Below, piece by piece: positions 25,543 to 50,285 of a stretch of DNA of 64,000 nucleotides. The DNA is taken from contig AP026140.1 in NCBI GenBank assembly GCA_030295235.1, positions 372,001-436,000 of the forward strand. Reading direction: 5' to 3'. The notes below the pieces were generated by a model that made no database searches, was not told the origin of the DNA, and saw only the letters and a list, made by a program, of their open reading frames with translations. This DNA is from Fistulifera solaris (Eukaryota). Every line of letters starts with the position of its first letter. Position 1 is the first letter of the stretch. Both the position numbers and the translations under genes were made by a program.

Positions 25543-26937
25543 TTACTTTAGAGCTTGCGGTGGTAGCTTTGGCTTGCGTGCGACGAATCGAGTACACCTG
25601 TATTGCAAGCTCACCATCGAACGCCGATCGGATGTATACAAGGCCGGATGGCCGCACGACGACTCTATTATTTCGAAACCAATATTTTTCAATATCTCTA
25701 TCATGTCATCCAGTGATAGATCAATTGATGTGAGATACTTTGAGTCGAGATGGTTCAATCGTTGGTGGTAATCGTCCACAGTTTGATCGTCTGGTCTCAT
25801 CGCAGGCCCCGACCAGTGCCACAGTAAAGGGCCAAAGTTGAAAAGAAGCCCCCAGGCTTCAGCATACGATAGATGACGAGTAGGTACTCCACCACATTCG
25901 GACTTGCGTCTAGGAAAAAGCATGCGACCACTCCATCCCACTGTCCTGCTTCTCTGTCGTCGCTATAAATCGAGACGAAATCGCCAGCTGCCATACTGAA
26001 CCCTGTTGACGACTCTGGGCTACTTTCATCTTCAATTTCATTGACTTTCCTTCTTTTTCAGTTTCGCTCGATGGATTGTCGGTTTGCATTTCATCATTTA
26101 AGTTTCTAAGAGGGGGTGCGAGTCGTCTCCCCCATTTTTCATGATCATTTCAAACGGATCGACGTCTGGGATGTGAACTACTCTTACTGGATCGTCCACA
26201 GAGTGCACATTACGACTCTCCAAGAGGTAAGGAGAGATGGCCAGTGGGGTCGATGGCTGCAAGGGCCCGTTCAAAATGTAGTCCGAAGCCAACAACATGT
26301 GCAAGGAAAACTCGTTGCCTTGAACTGCGTACCCGGACGCTGTTAACTCGCAAGCGAGCCTCCCCACTCCGGCACCAGGAACGCACAATCGCAGCGATCT
26401 GTTGTTCAACGGCAGGTACTTTTGTACCATCTTTAGAAGCGGGGCATACGCCATATCTCGCTCAACCTTGCCTTCGCTGGACCAGTCGCGAGCTAAACTT
26501 TTAAGCACCGATGATACTTTGGACATTTGTGCATCAGTCGAAAATTGCTGCTGTGTCATTTGTTGTGAATGAGGCTGACCTGCGTGCCGAAGGATGCAGT
26601 CGAGACAGAACTGGTTGCGAATCGCCGCATCCTTATACGCATTTGCACGCTCTTGAAATTCATTCGTTTCTTGTCGTAATCCTGCTGGTAGCAGGTTTCG
26701 CTGCGCCTCGGGTAACGAATGCAATCGGTATTGGCTGTTAACCCATTGCTGCATAGCAAATGTCGCGTATTGACGATACGCGCGGCATACATCTTCAAAG
26801 TGATTGTGTTCCTCGTGGTCATCTTCCATGTAGGTCTGGTAGGCCTGAGAGAGCGAATGAAACGGCCTCGCTGCTATCGGTGATTCATTAGAAAGCGATG
26901 CTTGTGTAGAGCTAGGAATTTGATTCGGTAAACTCAT
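25543..26937 (-). CDS. CARNMT1: Carnosine N-methyltransferase (N2227 family)
   Basis: KVSSVLKSLARDWSSEG..ER, VPGAGVGRL, QGNEFS..ML, SMAAGDF, CFFLD, LKPGG..NFGPLLWH. Split by indels near 26110, 26050 and 25850. Confidence 0.9.
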
Positions 26938-27585
26938 GGCCTTGGCGCGAAAAATGTGTCTAGCAAAGCAACAAACAAAAGAGTGTGAGATTCTATCAGG
27001 ACGCCTCATCGGTAAGGAAGCACAAACCGCGAGTGTCAGACAAGACTCTCAGAGCTTTAATGTTCCAGAGGAATCGGCCTCAGTCAGCGGTAGGTAGATA
27101 TAACGCTGATCAAGTTTTGACAGTCTCTGGGAGGGTGAAAAATGGCGAAGGAACGACACGAACCTTTAACGCTCGAGAACGCAAGCTATTGAGAGCTTTG
27201 ACGACCGCGTCGTTGCTGTTCTGCTTTGCTTTGCATTTAAAACAAATACGATTCAGGAAGATAGCTGAACGATAACACAAACAGTGACAAGTGCTTGTGT
27301 TGCGATCAATTTTATTTGCACAGCAATGCGATCTTTTTTTCGAGTGGCTGCGGGCGTTGTGTCACAAGTCATGGTACGACATCGTCACTTTTTTCATGCC
27401 GTTTCGACTCTAGAGTCTAGCTAGGCCTTCGGAGCCCAAAACATAAAATATAAATCTAGAATGGGAACAACGAAAGATCAATGATCAACTGAATTAATTA
27501 GATCATTACATATTACTGATGCTTTCTTTCATTTGCTACTGGAATCCTATAACCGAGCAGAGCGTCGAGACAAGCTTACCGGTTG

Positions 27586-36800: not shown

Positions 36801-37144
36801 GCAAAGGCCCTTCCTTTGCTTCGGAAACAACAGGGGCTGTTTTACTTGGCGGGGAGAGTGTGATTGTCAACGAACGCGTGACATCAGGAGGCGAGACTAT
36901 TGCCTGGCTTCGTCTTAGTGATGGTCAGTGGGTTCATGACGCAGACGACGACGGGAACAAGGTGATGGCTGCGCACTCGCTGTTTCATCGATCAATCCCC
37001 AGGCCAAAGAAAGAGAAGACGGTTGCTGGCTCAATTGAGGGAAAGGAAGCGGCTTACAACAGGATCGTCTCTCGCTTGTTTCACGGCGTGAAAAATGAGA
37101 TACCTCGGATCAACGCGCAACAACTTGATCCCAAGATGGGGTAA
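33895..37144 (+). CDS. Large Ser-rich hypothetical protein with several SH3b-like beta modules
   Basis: Recurring modules end in FLRLNHRHGWL, IKLSDNSGWA, ARLRGGQGWL and WLRLSDGQWV, and start with V.VR.GPS-like strands. The ORFs join by an indel at ~35711. Confidence 0.65.
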
Positions 37145-37203
37145 ACTTAAGTGCCCACCAAAAAGTCAAAAAAACTGCATCGCATTGTCTGAACACTGGG
37201 GTG

Positions 37204-37372
37204 TCTAGCTTAGTAGACGGTAGACAAGAAACGGAAGATGCCGGAGACAAGAATTTTAGTCTCTAACCTCTCTAGACTCTTTAGAGTCTCCATCTAGCTT
37301 AGCAGACGGTAGACAAGAAACGGAAGATGTTGGAGACAAGACTAAATCTTTCTATAGACTCTATAGAGTCTC
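37204..37372. repeat. Two-copy ~89-bp tandem duplication
   Basis: tctagcttag(t/c)agacggtagacaagaaacggaagatg..ggagacaaga occurs at 37204 and 37293. Each copy ends in the near-palindrome agactct(t/a)tagagtct. Confidence 0.85.
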
Positions 37373-37715
37373 CAATGAATGCACCAAAATGCAAGTACGG
37401 GTATTCTCGCGCACCGGTACTCCTTTTAGTAGTAGAAATAATCATAGAAGTAAGGCTACTACGTACTACTACTACGTAACATGCTTTTGCATACTTGAAA
37501 CAGTACGGAATACGGATTTACGTAATGTACTTAAACTCTTATAATGAAAGTGAATTATGACCGCGTTCAGTCATTTTCAGCGACTTCTGCTGTTGCAATT
37601 GTTCCAACAAAAGCAGGGTGCGATTTACACAAAAACTCACAAAAAATGCTCTGCATTATATTGATAGAGGAATTGGGATCTGTCTCGGCTAGGTTGCTGT
37701 CAACCAAGGATAATC

Positions 37716-38437
37716 ATGCCTCATCTGTTTTGTCCGGGGAAGACAAAACAAGTGGCGCCGCCTGATGTCGGCCTAATGAGCGCCTCTGTTCAAAAGTTGG
37801 CGGAAGATGGAAAACTCGACCATATTTACAACATCCCTTTAATGGAACTTAATTGCCAGTTCGGCCTTGTTCGGAATCGTACCGATGAACCAACTCCTCT
37901 TCAACAGGCTGTCAAGCAGGAGCGTGCAAGGCAACAAGCAAAAGTAACATTGGTATTCGCAGTTCGGCGCCCTGGGTGAGCTTCGTGCCGCGAGCACGGC
38001 CAGCAATTGGCTAAGCTCGTGGCAGAAGAACCGTCGGCGGCCCTTCTCGCCACGGTCAAAGAAACAGGCGCTGACGACGAAGCCCTCCCTCGACTTTTTA
38101 CGAAAAGTACTTTGCGAGGCATGTTATTTATCAAGACGAGAAGTGGAAGTTGTATCATGCCATGGGAGGCAGAAAGATCGGCACGGGCAAGTTGGTAACT
38201 GGACTACTAAGATCTGTAAGAAGGCATCGAGCAAACAATATCGAGGCGAGCCATAACACCACCACTGTGGATACATGGATGCTGGGTGGTGTTCTGATAT
38301 TCGATAAGAAAGGAAATTTAATGCATGTTGTCGAAGAGGATTATGGCGTGGCCCTTGATATTCAAGCGATAAAGATGATAATTGATGAAATCAAGAAAAA
38401 TCAAGGTACCAAGGACACTAAGAATACAGCATCATAA
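37716..38437 (+). CDS. SELU: Selenoprotein U / PRXL2A-like (AhpC/TSA_2 thioredoxin fold), copy A, TGA=Sec at 37977-37979
   Basis: FAVRRPG-TGA-ASCREHG continues in the same frame and matches the AVRRPG(C/U)xxCRE motif. Downstream are VKET, LYHAMGGRKI and GGVLIFD. There is a +2 homopolymer indel near 38085-38100 relative to copy B. Confidence 0.8.
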
Positions 38438-38511
38438 TCAGCAGAGGATGGCAGTGATAGTATTGATGGCAAGAGGGCGGGAAGTTTATAGCCGTCATGA
38501 TTGCATGTACA

Positions 38512-38572
38512 TGCATTGTGAATGATATTCATCTGCTTACAAGCGATGGATTGACAAACGCGCAATTATGCA
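38512..38572 (+). promoter_or_regulatory. SECIS-like hairpin A1 (3' UTR of SelU copy A)
   Basis: ATGAT (38522) and TGAC (38552) form the core, flanking an ATTCATC/GATGGAT stem with a TTACAA loop. Lower stem TGCATTGTG/CGCAA..ATGCA. Confidence 0.5.
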
Positions 38573-38620
38573 GTTGTTCTGTAAGAGGATGAAACAAAAA
38601 GTCAAGAAGACCATGAAAAT

Positions 38621-38670
38621 TGTGAATGACGGTTGTTCACACCCTCATCGGTAGAGCGACCTGATCTACA
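38621..38670 (+). promoter_or_regulatory. SECIS-like hairpin A2 (3' UTR of SelU copy A)
   Basis: TGTGA-ATGAC (38626) and TGAT (38662) flank a GGTTGTTC/GAGCGACC stem plus an ACC/GGT minihelix. Homologous to the copy B hairpin. Confidence 0.55.
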
Positions 38671-38711
38671 TATTGTAATACGAAATGACTAGTCGTCTAT
38701 ATTGTTTATCA

Positions 38712-38750
38712 TCATTGACCATTTTGTGATCCTCGCTCGTTCATTCTGTT
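38712..38750 (-). pseudogene. Relic of the ABCE1 terminal exon
   Basis: tcattgaccattttgtgatcctcgctcgttcattctgt resembles tcttgatccttttgtgatcctcgcttattgattctgt (40862-40898). It translates as RMNERGSQNGQ* versus [11 protein letters not shown]. Confidence 0.65.
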
Positions 38751-39645
38751 ATCATGCATTGAAGCTACATCGGGAAAAAAGAAGGCTGTAGTGGACGACG
38801 ACAGATGTCTAAGAGCATAAAACAAAACATTGTGTTCCTGTGTATAGCGAAGCTCGCCCGAGAGGGTAAATATAGCTATGGAAGACCGAGATGCTTGTTG
38901 TTTCGGGTTAGTACCTTCCCACCGCATCACCTCATTGCTCTTGATCTCAGTCTCAGTGCACTTTTATATCGACGTCGAACAGCTCAAAACGGTAAAAGGC
39001 CAATGCAGAAGCTAGTGACGACGCGCAATCACCGATCATCATCCGTCGATGACCTCCTCACTTCTCACTTAACCGCACTCGTCAGCAGATCGGTGACGAT
39101 TTCAGAAATGGTTGATGGTGAATGGTGAATGATAAGAGTGAACGATGAATGACGAAAAATAATAATGATAAGAACGAAATAACGAAGTTGAAGTTACTCG
39201 TTACTTGAACGTTGCAAGACTTAATTGGACCTAATTAGATTAGCTAATAGTGTAGTCTCGTTATTCTTTGCTTCTTTTGCCAGATGTCATATGACCATTA
39301 GATCAGTACACCGGAGTTTCCCAACAGTTATCAAAGTACAATACAGATTACTGTCCATTTACCTTTTCTGCTTCATGCAACGAACAGCAAGAGCAATGGG
39401 CAAAGTGGGCAAACGCGCAACACGCAACACGCAGCACATCATGAAGAATCAATCATGGTTGGACGTTGTGCTGGTGATGCATGATGCCTGAGTCATCCCT
39501 TCAGCTTCCAACTTCCAATTTCCAACGACATCTTTCCATCCACTGACTTTCACTTTCACCCATTTGCTCAAAGATAAAAACAAGGTTGGAATCAAAGCCT
39601 TGAGCCTTGTTTTTGCAAGCCGCTTGCAGCCATCAAAGTTCCATC

Positions 39646-40419
39646 ATGCCAGGTCTCGTTTCTCCGAAGAAAACGAAGCAGGTAGTGGAGGCACCATTCG
39701 ATTCGAGTCTCACAAATGCCTCTGTCAAAAAATTGGCTGAAGACGGAAAGCTCGACCACATTTACAACATTCCTTTACAGGAACTCAATTGCCAGTTCGG
39801 TATTGTTCGAAACCGAACGGACGAACAAGTTCCTCTCCAAAAAGTGGTAAGACGAGAGCGTTCGAGGCAGCAATCCAAGGTGACGTTGGTGTTTGCCGTA
39901 CGACGTCCTGGATGATCTGGGTGCCGCGAGCACGGCCGACAGCTGGCTGAGCTCGTGGCGGAAGATTCGTCCGCGGCCCTACTCGCGACGGTTAAGGAGA
40001 CAGGAGTGGACGACAAAGCCCTCCTCGACTTTTACGAGAAGTATTTTGCGCGGCATGCCATATACAAGGACGAGAAGTGGAAGCTGTATCATGCCATGGG
40101 AGGCAGAAAGATCAGTGTCGGCAAGTTAGTCACTGGACTGATGAAGTCTTTTCGACGGCACCGAGAAAAGAAAGTCGAGGCAAGTCCTAACATTACTGCC
40201 GGAGATGGATGGATGCAGGGTGGCGTCCTTATATTCGATAGACGAGGAAATCTTAGACATTTAATCGAAGAGGATTATGGCGAGCCCCTTGATACACAAG
40301 CAATCAAGGACGTGATAGAAGAAATCAAGCGAAATCAAACTATCAGGGACACTGATGATTCGGGATCGCAATTCGCAGAGGACAGCAGTGAGAGCCTCCA
40401 GGAAACCGAGTCATCTTAA
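39646..40419 (+). CDS. SELU: Selenoprotein U / PRXL2A-like, copy B, TGA=Sec at 39913-39915 (257 aa, Sec90)
   Basis: One continuous frame runs from ATG 39646 to TAA 40419, interrupted only by the TGA in FAVRRPG-U-SGCREHG. Later motifs are DEKWKLYHAMGGRKI, GDGWMQGGVLIFD and EEDYG. Confidence 0.9.
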
Positions 40420-40485
40420 TTAACAGGTCCAACTCAACCGAAGCGGGCCTTTGGGTAGACTAGCACGAAGAGAAAGATTGGCATG

Positions 40486-40556
40486 GTCATGGAACTGTGA
40501 ATGATGGTTTCTCTAGCCTTTTTGGTTAAAAACCTGATGAGTATTTGTTCCATGAC
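40486..40556 (+). promoter_or_regulatory. SECIS-like hairpin B (3' UTR of SelU copy B)
   Basis: Perfect 10-bp lower stem GTCATGGAAC/GTTCCATGAC. Core ATGAT (40501) / TGAT (40535). Upper stem GGTTT/AAACC plus TAGCC/GGTTA. Starts 66 nt after the stop codon. Confidence 0.7.
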
Positions 40557-40785
40557 GCGCCACCCTTGCCGACTTTGTGCCGGGCATACCTGGTATTTGG
40601 TTAAAGCATAAGCACGTAGTTATTCATATTAGGAATTTTGTGACGTATTCCGCATCAGTTAGAATGAACTACATTATTGGGACCACCAAGAAAGAAAGGT
40701 TACTTAAGAATAGGTTGCTCTTTGTTTTGCATTTGCGCCGAGACTGTCGCTCACATCAACGCTCAATCGTATACTGGGTATTCTT

Positions 40786-43143
40786 TTAGAGATCATCATC
40801 ATCAATGTCGTCATCATCGCCGTCGTTCTCGTAAAAGAAGTAATTTCCGCTAGCTTTTTGTTCTTGATCCTTTTGTGATCCTCGCTTATTGATTCTGTGG
40901 GTAAAAGATAAGAGCACGTTGTCAGTGACGCAACATTTCAAATGAATAGGCTACCCAAGAGCCACAGAAATAACGCTGGTAGGAAATTAAAACATAAGAC
41001 TTGAAGCTTTCATAGCCAACACTAAAACAGCGCTCGCGTTTGCGAAAAGGCGTAAAGAATTGTTTCTCGTCATTCCAGTCAAACACATACAAGCCACCGA
41101 CTAAAGACTTACCGAGGACGGAAGTTGACAGGATCACGACGAAATGTAACCTGCAAGCTCTTAAGAAACGTGTTCATACCGGTGAGAAGCGACTGCGGAG
41201 AGGTAGCGGTTGCTTCCACACCAGGCTTTCCCTCGTAGACAACTACTCGATCAGCCAAATACGTCGCCATGATAAAATCGTGTTCCACGACAAAGGCTGT
41301 CTTCTTGCTATGCATGATGAAACGCTTAATAACTTTGGCGCAATTGACGCGCTGCTCCGAATCCAGATACGCGCTGGGTTCATCGATGAGATACACATCG
41401 GCTGGTTGACCTAGAGCCAAAACGATAGCAAGTCGTTGTAATTCACCGCCGGAAAGATTCTGGACACCGTTGTCGATGATGTTGTCAATTACCAACGGTT
41501 TCATCACATCAGATATGAACTGAGGGTGAATGTATGCATCTCGAACGCGTTTGTGAAGAAGTTGTCGAACCGTGCCCTGGAATTTAGGTGAAATTTTCTG
41601 TGGCTTGTAGCTAACATTCAGCTCCGGTACTCCAGCCAGCGACGCTTCGTAGTCGAGTCCCTCAGCTTCAAGCTGAACCTGCTCGTCACTCTTCAGCAAG
41701 CCTGCCAACATACGCACGAACGTCGTCTTTCCGGTTCCATTTTCTCCGAGAAGCACAATAATTTCAGAATCCGTGAATTCACCCTTTTGAACATGCAAGA
41801 TAAACTTCGAATCATCTCGCGATTGCGTTTTTGTCATGTCTGGATAAGAATAATTCTTCAAAATATCGTTCTTGTCGCTACCTGCTTCAGCGCGTTCCGA
41901 AACCTATTATAAATAAAACAAAGTTGTAGTCAGCAAACAAGAAAGTCATCGACCAAATACACCGCAACAATAGCTCCTACGTACCTTGAACGTCAGTGCA
42001 TGATCACGGAATCGCATATTCTCGGACTGAACAAAACCAGCCAAGAAGGCATTGATACCGTTGCGAACACTGTGGGGCATCGTCACTACACCATAACCAC
42101 CGGCTTGGCCGTACAGAATGCAGATATAATCACTGAGATAATCCAAAACCGCCAAATCGTGCTCCACGACCAATACATAACGCCGATCGGCTCCCGTGCC
42201 CTCCAAGATTTTGCGAATCATCGCGGCCGCCGTCAAACGCTGTTTCACATCGAGATAGGACGACGGCTCATCGAACATGTACACATCACTGACTTGCACA
42301 GCAACGGCAGCAATCGCAAATCGCTGCAACTCTCCACCACTCAACACACCGATCTGACGATCGACTAAATGTTCCAGTTCCGCTTCCTTCAACGCCCAGC
42401 CCAGCACGTCCCAACCTTCGGCTTCCGTGCGTTCATCCTTCGACTTGAGTACATCCATGACGGTGCCTTTGACAGCCCGGGGGATGTGATCTACGTACTG
42501 TGGCTTGATGGTGGCTTTCATGGTATCTTCCAAGATGCGGGTAAAGTAGTTTTGCAACTCACTGCCACGAAAGTACACCAAAATTTCTTCCCAATCCGGA
42601 GGTGTCTCGTATTTTCCCAAGTTGGGCTTCATTTTTCCCGCCAGAATTTTGAGTGCGGTCGACTTACCGATACCGTTGGTGCCGACCAAGCCGAGTACCT
42701 GGCCCGGACGAGGCATGGGAAGTCGATGCAGTTTGAATGAGTTGGGACCGTAACGGTGTGTCGTGTTTTTCTCGAGGTCTTTCGGGAGGTTGATGATATT
42801 AATAGCTTCGAACGGGCACTTTTTGACGCAAATACCACATCCTGAAAAAGTTGCAAAAAATAGGAAATGCAGGAATGGGCAAAATGGATGAGAAAACGTG
42901 TTGAAAGCGCAAAACGACGACGTTTAAATTTGTAAACGTACCGATGCAAAGGGGCTCCGAGATGAAAGCAATTTTACTCTTGGCGTCGACTTCGATGCAC
43001 ATTTTTCCTAATTTAACGACAGGACACGACTTTTTGCATTCCTGACCACACTTCTTGGGCTTGCATCTCTCGGCCCCGACGATGGCAATACGTGTCATCG
43101 TCTCTTCCTCCTTGCTGCTGGCGGCTTTCTTTTTCGGCGCCAT
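40786..43143 (-). CDS. ABCE1: ABCE1/RLI1 ribosome recycling ATPase
   Basis: FeS domain [16 protein letters not shown]...[13 protein letters not shown] and two NBDs ([28 protein letters not shown]). Introns at ~42843-42940, ~41905-41983 and ~40896-41112. Confidence 0.97.
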
Positions 43144-49369: not shown

Positions 49370-50285
49370 AAATTTTTCGATCCTACCTAAAAGCTGAGCA
49401 AGTTCCAGAATGTCATGAAATAGTGATATAGAGCATAATGAATAATGAAAGAAAGTGCGTGTTCCAGATTTCCAGGAAACTTTGTTTTGCGTCTTAACGA
49501 AGCAAAATGCAAATTCCAGAATTTCTGGAAAAAGTGTTTTGCATCATACCTGGTACAGAAATTCTGATGTAGTCCAGAAATTCTGGACCAATTTTTCGAT
49601 CCTACCTAAATGCTGAGAAAGTTCCAGAATTTCATGAAATAGTGTTATGGAGGATGACGAAGAAAGTACGCTTTCCAGATTTTCAAGAAACTGTGTTTTG
49701 CGTCTTAACGAAGCAAAATGCAAATTCCAGAATTTCTGGAAAAAGTGTTTTGCATCATACAGAAATTCTGATGTAGTCCAGAAATTCTGGACCAATTTTT
49801 TCGATCCTACCGAAATGCTGAGAAAGTTCCAGAATTTCATCAAACAGTGTTATGGAGCATGACGAAGAAAGTACGCTTTCCAGATTTTCAAGAAACTGTG
49901 TTTTGCGTCTTAACGAAGCAAAATGCAAATTCCAGAATTTCTGGAAAAGTGTTTTGCATCATACAGAAATGCTGTGTATTGGTCCAGAAATTCTGGACCA
50001 ATTTTTTCGATCCTACCGAAATGCTGAGAAAGTTCCAGAATTTCATCAAACAGTGTTATGGAGCATGACGAAGAAAGTACGCTTTCCAGATTTTCAGGAA
50101 ACTGTGTTTTGCGTCTTAACGAAGCAAAATGCAAATTCCAGAATTTCTGGAAAAAGTGTTTTGCATCATACAGAAATGCTGTGTATTGGTCCAGAAATTC
50201 TGGACCAATTTTTTCGATCCTACCGAAATGCTGTTTTGCATCATACAGAAATTCTGTTGTGTTCCAGAAGTTCTGGACAGATTTT
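49370..50285. repeat. Satellite-like array B: ~205-206-bp tandem unit, about 4.4 copies
   Basis: gacgaagaaagtacgctttccagat starts at 49656, 49861 and 50067, with a degenerate copy near 49445. Each unit holds ttccagaatttctggaa and gtccagaaattctggac palindromes. Confidence 0.92.

Follow-up and report, generated by a model that had tools for sequence, protein, structure and literature searches.

Two tandem genes of the diatom Fistulifera solaris, lying in a 64,000-nt stretch of its genome (contig AP026140.1, positions 372,001 to 436,000; hereafter the window), each carry an in-frame TGA codon at the same point of a conserved redox motif. We believe that these genes, referred to here as copies A and B, are very probably old paralogs of the diatom PRXL2/SelU type in which the TGA is decoded as selenocysteine (Sec) by way of hairpins in the 3' untranslated regions (3'UTRs). 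That they encode Sec-containing redox enzymes had been proposed in a preliminary description of this DNA, and the proposal is now supported by comparative evidence of several kinds: the pairing of the TGA with Cys in homologous proteins, selection on both sides of the codon, contigs that cross it unspliced, the hairpins, and the predicted fold.

Two tandem genes with an in-frame TGA

The coding regions and proposed Sec codons are as follows.

37716..38437, plus strand: copy A coding region, from ATG 37716 to stop TAA 38435-37, with the proposed Sec (U) as codon 88
37977..37979, plus strand: copy A in-frame TGA, the proposed Sec codon, bridged by contigs of sequencing runs X1, X2, X3 and X4
39646..40419, plus strand: copy B coding region, 257 residues with U as codon 90, stop TAA 40417-19
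39913..39915, plus strand: copy B in-frame TGA, the proposed Sec codon, bridged by X1 record 4

Both paralogs have the TGA inside the motif FAVRRPG-TGA-xxCREHG. Copy A reads ...KVTLVFAVRRPG up to the TGA at 37977-79 and then ASCREHG in the same frame; copy B reads ...KVTLVFAVRRPG up to the TGA at 39913-15 and then SGCREHG, and this is its sole in-frame TGA before the TAA at 40417-19. Three statements of the preliminary description thus hold: the TGA stands at the same point of both frames, copy B is otherwise a single open frame of 257 codons, and the codons around the TGA have diverged between the copies with the TGA itself kept (ggg tga gct tcg in copy A vs gga tga tct ggg in copy B). The N-terminal stretch KLAEDGKLDHIYNIPL.ELNCQFG.VRNRTDE is common to copies A and B and to the full-length homologs. 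As given in the window, the frame of copy A shifts by +2 relative to copy B near 38089-38095, a point taken up below with the sequencing runs.

The TGA codon aligns with a catalytic cysteine

With the copy B protein as query (U read as C), 76 of 695 candidate proteins matched at E≤0.001, and 25 of the 76 were aligned with the query (alignment A2). The nearest named relatives are from raphid pennate diatoms (Fistulifera, Mayamaea and Seminavis). The TGA column holds Cys in 17 of the 25 aligned homologs, 'W' in three and a gap in five; it corresponds to the first Cys of a CxxC redox motif, the second Cys of which is unchanged in every one of the 21 rows that reach it. The expectation that the TGA would align with Cys or Sec was borne out, the residue in these 17 homologs being the catalytic Cys. 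An exchange of TGA and Cys at a catalytic redox position is what classically marks a selenoprotein in comparative work.

Metagenome contigs were scanned as well and yielded 77 pattern matches, among them eight loci encoding a relative; six of the eight have TGA at the same codon and two (L005/L006) TGC. The TGA loci fall into three lineages, namely L001/L002/L003, which are nearly identical, L004, and L007/L008. The translation of L001 shares the motif of protein P0010, with TGA at the position of the 'W' in P0010, and the L001 contig is as long (9856) as the longest contig recorded for P0010; the 'W' of P0010 is evidently a TGA translated by another code. The 'W' of P0001 and of P0008 is by analogy presumably TGA as well.

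Copies A and B were compared by Nei-Gojobori counting, done piecewise around two spurious bases in copy A. The 81 codons upstream of the TGA include 64 identical residues, with a nonsynonymous divergence (dN) of 0.125 and changes at 42.5 of 56.7 synonymous sites, which is saturation; the 149 codons downstream have a ratio of nonsynonymous to synonymous divergence (dN/dS) of 0.22. Given the dN of 0.125 with saturated synonymous sites on one side and the ratio of 0.22 on the other, one frame has been conserved across the TGA, with both flanks under purifying selection, and the duplication is old. The 25 open reading frames (ORFs) of the window that start with ATG and have at least 220 amino acids end 11 times with TGA, eight times with TAA and six times with TAG. 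Since TGA is the stop of 11 of these long ORFs, it has not been globally reassigned.

Protein family and predicted fold

Pfam places an AhpC-TSA_2 domain (PF13911) at residues 125-202 of the copy B protein, with 30.7 bits against a gathering cutoff of 27 and an E-value of 4.5e-7. The A2 profile matches human prostamide/PGF synthase (PRXL2B, 9us9_A; E 2.1e-8) in an alignment that pairs RRfGCvvCR with RRPG-U-sgCR and so sets CxxC on UxxC. An AlphaFold2 (AF2) model computed on A2 has a mean pLDDT of 81.4 and a pTM of 0.79, with residues 20-239 structured. Foldseek ranks 9usa and 9us9 at the top (E 2.5e-9), and VIA-align also puts them first, with Z scores of 15.5 and 13.9, the next match having 12.6; peroxiredoxin Q (PrxQ)/BCP and other peroxiredoxins follow these two at Z about 12. 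In the best VIA-align match, 9usa, model residues 35-228 lie on residues 5-184 of the chain (159/163 residues, rmsd 2.8 Å). U90 is directly N-terminal of the helix spanning residues 91-106 of the model, which would put (U/C)xxC at the start of helix alpha1. Searching a protein atlas with P0011, a homolog of the Cys form, gave nothing beyond generic AhpC-TSA_2 clusters.

The Pfam AhpC-TSA_2 match and the closest structure, human PRXL2B, support placing both predicted proteins in the SelU/PRXL2 family, an assignment made at the level of the family and not of PRXL2A, B or C. The motif RRPG(C/U)xxCRE is typical of PRXL2A. Like the copies described here, SelU (SELENOU; PRXL2A/FAM213A, in fish, birds and algae) has an AhpC-TSA_2 domain with UxxC where other members have CxxC. 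In addition SelU has UGA-encoded Sec with a stem-loop in the 3'UTR, and it is found in diatoms, often in several copies; Thalassiosira pseudonana has two SelU genes (PMC2375036). The proteins of copies A and B differ from it in having some 34 additional residues at the N-terminus and an acidic tail at the C-terminus, and their hairpins fail the Rfam models of the Sec insertion sequence (SECIS). Human PRXL2B/FAM213B (9us9, 9usa) is the top match by both profile and structure with its CxxC aligned on the UxxC, but the human enzyme uses Cys and is only 17-24% identical, and its substrate is not transferable to the diatom proteins. The likeness to PrxQ/BCP, which has a Prx-like thioredoxin fold (model residues 21-229 aligned, Z 12.6), is one of fold, as identity is 11-13% and the peroxidatic Cys stands in another motif context.

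Both copies share an N-terminal extension of about 65 residues, as had been noted at the outset; its description as unassignable did not hold. Because model residues 35-228 align to human PRXL2B, most of the 'extension' is, in the model, the hairpin and helix with which the Prx-like fold begins, beyond the reach of the Pfam model. The truly extra N-terminus comprises about residues 1-34, of which residues 1-17 are predicted with low confidence by AF2.

Copy A is intact in public sequencing runs

Seven public runs from four studies match the locus, and none of these seven listed matching runs is labelled RNA. We examined the Logan contigs of four runs (X1 to X4, from two studies) over 37600-40720; X2 is a wetland metagenome, and X3 and X4 are only guessed to be RNA. 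Single bases at 38089 and 38095 are missing from all four runs at full depth. Because X1 to X4 all omit these letters, the copy A frameshift comes down to two spurious bases, an assembly error in the window, and the gene is intact. With both letters removed copy A reads ...DDEALLDFYEKYF..., in agreement with the intact public proteins P0006 and P0081 from other assemblies. The extra bases are single-base insertions, one in a C run and one in a T run. The copy A stop, TAA at 38435, is present in X1, X3 and X4, is CAA in X2, and corresponds to Gln in P0006/P0081; it is a natural T/C-polymorphic stop that removes 19 residues of the tail.

The TGA of copy A is bridged, with zero other letters, by records 2, 10, 17 and 23 (one each from X1 to X4), and that of copy B, likewise with zero other letters, by X1 record 4 (38152-39950). 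The contigs of X1 to X4 contain no alternative letter at either TGA and no joints (splices). TGC, TGT or TGG in reads at this position had been named beforehand as speaking against Sec; none was found in the contigs that bridge the TGAs, from X1 to X4 for copy A and from X1 for copy B.

Copy A has a depth of 50-336 in X3/X4, runs of ~12 million letters, which we infer would be hard to get from genomic DNA. If X3 and X4 are RNA, the transcript of copy A contains the TGA unspliced. On that condition the prediction of unspliced reads across the TGA would stand for copy A, where X3/X4 contain no joints; it does not extend to copy B, the TGA of which is outside the X3/X4 contigs.

SECIS-like hairpins in the 3'UTRs

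Three SECIS-like hairpins were identified downstream of the two stop codons.

38515..38566, plus strand: copy A SECIS-like hairpin 1, ATGA 38522 and GA 38553, within the contigs X3 record 19 and X4 record 25
38619..38679, plus strand: copy A SECIS-like hairpin 2, ATGA 38626 and GA 38663, the sequence counterpart of the copy B hairpin
40486..40556, plus strand: copy B SECIS-like hairpin, ATGA 40501 and GA 40536, within X4 record 26 (40076-40573)

When folded, the hairpins have a helix I, an internal loop with AUGA facing GA, and a helix II. In copy B helix I has 10 bp, the core is AAUGAU / CUGAUG and helix II has 5+5 bp; the minimum free energy (MFE) is -25.7 kcal/mol (z -3.37), and 0/200 shuffles folded equally well. 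The corresponding values for the L001 hairpin are -30.6 kcal/mol and z -4.83. The 3'UTRs of copies A and B, otherwise diverged, share the element TGTGAATGA(C/T)GGTT...ACCTGAT, the counterpart of which in L001-L003 is CTGTGAATGAAGGCATGTT...AACATGCCTGAT; these sequences differ such that the helix adjoining the core is changed on both strands. The sequence TGTGAATGA occurs four times in the window (~0.5 expected by arithmetic), three times within the two 3'UTRs. We attribute the fourth occurrence, at 26564, to chance, since it falls within the coding sequence of a CARME-like gene on the minus strand.

We searched with a SECIS descriptor requiring ATGA...GA 24-80 nt apart, a helix II of 8 bp or more that is interrupted by no more than one small internal loop, and a helix I of 5 bp or more. 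This descriptor matches all five Sec-type 3'UTRs, that of copy A twice, and not the one Cys-type 3'UTR (L005), the positions being 38522 and 38626 in copy A, 40501 in copy B, 1504 in L001, 944 in L004 and 1664 in L007. Altogether there were 12 matches in the 159,470 nt searched, including the six in Sec-type UTRs, and on 200 shuffles no more than one of the five UTRs ever matched. An alignment of three hairpins with MAFFT and RNAalifold was discarded, as the 3' halves were misaligned and the resulting 5-pair structure was meaningless.

Hairpins 1 and 2 of copy A both begin with AUUGUGAAUGA, and copy B has a single hairpin. Over copy A, the contigs of X3 and X4 end at 38631 and 38606, short of the end of hairpin 2; contig ends cannot show RNA ends. 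We also note, ~70 nt past the stop in L001 (1265-1345), the motif GAGAAUGACGAGACA, which is present in the functional-looking hairpins of L004 and L007 as well. No 3' partner of this motif was detected in L001, and it may be a decayed older SECIS next to the newer one at 1494-1560.

Public annotation of the locus

The Fistulifera solaris protein GAX09345.1 (P0003) lacks the TGA segment, with ...PLQKA fused straight to HGQQLAELV. The gap around the TGA looks like a false intron, and this model probably also has a long spurious N-terminal extension. Four proteins derived from NCBI (P0004, P0006, P0078 and P0079) start just past the TGA. Gene callers had been expected to fragment the genes or to bridge the TGA, and both outcomes are seen, as P0003 skips the codon and four other models start after it. 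A literature search combining Fistulifera solaris with selenoprotein returned no listing that describes the locus, and the available portion of PMC7539508 mentions Fistulifera for PDI_e alone.

Other features of the window

On the minus strand at 41109-42716 are two adjoining ORFs, each with an ABC_tran domain (E 2e-18 and 7e-18). They are probably one ABCE/ABCF-type twin-ATPase gene that an intron or a change of frame interrupts, and the X3 contig at 40636-40720 may be its 3' end. At 26098-27009, also on the minus strand, an ORF encodes a carnosine N-methyltransferase (CARME) domain (E 4.2e-37). A tandem repeat at 49373-50233 has 4.1 copies of a 206-bp unit with 93% matches and an internal 51-bp sub-period.

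Discussion

We propose that the TGA in FAVRRPG-U-xx-C-REHG would be read as Sec, making both products AhpC-TSA_2 thiol-selenol oxidoreductases, and that a kink-turn (AUGA...GA) stem-loop 80-190 nt past the true stop would direct this decoding. The selenolate, U88 in copy A and U90 in copy B, would sit at the N-terminus of helix alpha1 in a peroxiredoxin-like thioredoxin fold and would attack an oxidised substrate, whether a peroxide, an endoperoxide or a disulfide. A selenenylsulfide would then form with the Cys three residues on, to be reduced by the thioredoxin or glutathione system. This putative catalytic cycle is modelled on the family; the insertion of Sec, the substrate and the reductant are all presumed in it.

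Several results weigh against Sec decoding. No Rfam SECIS family was found at E≤10, either over 37000-42000 or with the hairpins searched singly, and Rfam gave chance-level matches alone (ssnA, L2 leader, GlsR6, HOTAIR_2, CRISPR-DR47 and snR67). Inspection of the three hairpins of the window did not reveal the expected unpaired AA(R) past helix II, and they have AC, CUC or U in its place; among the hairpins inspected, L007 alone has an apical loop starting with AA (AAUCC). CC variants of AA(R) occur in mammalian SelM and SelO. The thresholds of the descriptor were chosen once the elements had been seen. A covariance model, R1, was made from the L001 hairpin (three identical rows) and searched unfiltered over the window, L004, L005 and L007; among its 13 matches at E≤10 the copy B hairpin ranks lowest (9.3 bits, E 9.2), and those of copy A, L004 and L007 are missing from the 13. 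This single-sequence model does not discriminate. As regards the Sec machinery, ARAGORN found zero tRNA genes in the window. Finally, the copy B TGA is inside no contig of the presumed-RNA runs X3 and X4, which have no cover over 38650-39900, a gap that is not evidence either way.

The absence of an Rfam SECIS match would also suit true stops at the two TGAs, each locus then being either a pseudogene in decay or a pair of separate short ORFs. More of the long ORFs in the window end with TGA than with either other stop, and public gene models skip the codon or begin after it. We nonetheless find this scarcely credible. The frame is kept on both sides, with dN at 0.125 upstream, where synonymous sites are saturated, and dN/dS at 0.22 downstream; two old paralogs and three further lineages all have TGA at this one codon, the position of the catalytic Cys in 17 homologs; and the part upstream of the TGA is integral to the predicted fold (pLDDT 80-96 at residues 20-89). 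A different explanation is that the UGA is recoded to something other than Sec, such as Cys or Trp by near-cognate read-through, and that the hairpins are unrelated kink-turn structures. The hairpins do fail the Rfam SECIS models and are without a clear AAR motif, and the copy B hairpin bears a weak resemblance to C/D-box kink-turn RNAs (GlsR6, 11.8 bits, E 0.99). The TGA nevertheless interchanges with Cys at the catalytic redox position, as is classic for selenoproteins, and the AUGA...GA hairpin is in five of five Sec-type 3'UTRs and absent from the one of Cys type. SelU is moreover a known Sec family in diatoms and other algae (PMC2375036, PMC7539508), and we consider non-Sec recoding very improbable.

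Another alternative concerns copy A, which could be a genuine pseudogene in the strain of the window, with a real +2 shift at 38089/38095 and copy B alone functional. Both extra bases do stand in the window sequence, and TAA stands at 38435 in place of the Gln codon seen in other assemblies. However, the four runs, three of which share the organism code of the best-matching run, all omit both bases; the downstream frame is otherwise residue-identical to intact P0006/P0081 and is under purifying selection; presumed-RNA contigs cover copy A at a depth of 50-336; and the TAA removes nothing but an acidic tail of 19 residues. There is thus little chance that copy A is a pseudogene, and we favor two functional Sec-encoding genes. 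More speculatively, these could define a PRXL2 selenoprotein clade of pennate diatoms, separate from classical SelU, that has a divergent SECIS, with a conserved (U/A)GAAUGA...UGA core, no AAR and no visibility to Rfam, duplicated in copy A and perhaps in L001. We regard this as rather unlikely; if true, one mRNA could bear two alternative SECIS elements.

That diatoms decode UGA as Sec, as the preliminary description had stated, is in keeping with a study of T. pseudonana (Lobanov et al. 2007, PMC2375036) that reports 16 selenoprotein genes, SelU accounting for two, together with a tRNA-Sec that was sequenced. The survey by Jiang et al. (2020, PMC7539508) ranks SELENOU with the Sec proteins most widespread in algae and gives 20-44 selenoprotein genes per diatom, so that from these two sources diatoms overall have a reported tRNA-Sec and 16-44 selenoprotein genes. 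It also describes a tandem SELENOU pair in Emiliania huxleyi that, like copies A and B, consists of adjacent genes, read there as duplication of one ancestor followed by divergence, although that host is a haptophyte and not a diatom.

Because Sec-containing SelU has been established in diatoms since 2007 (PMC2375036), the known picture is unchanged; what is new is this mis-annotated gene pair. The annotation of the locus is corrected, in that two full-length selenoenzymes, as we very probably read them, replace truncated or falsely spliced public models, and two assembly errors of the window, at 38089 and 38095, are flagged. The small comparative set assembled here, with Sec/Cys pairs and hairpins that curated models miss, could help to tune SECIS detection in stramenopiles.

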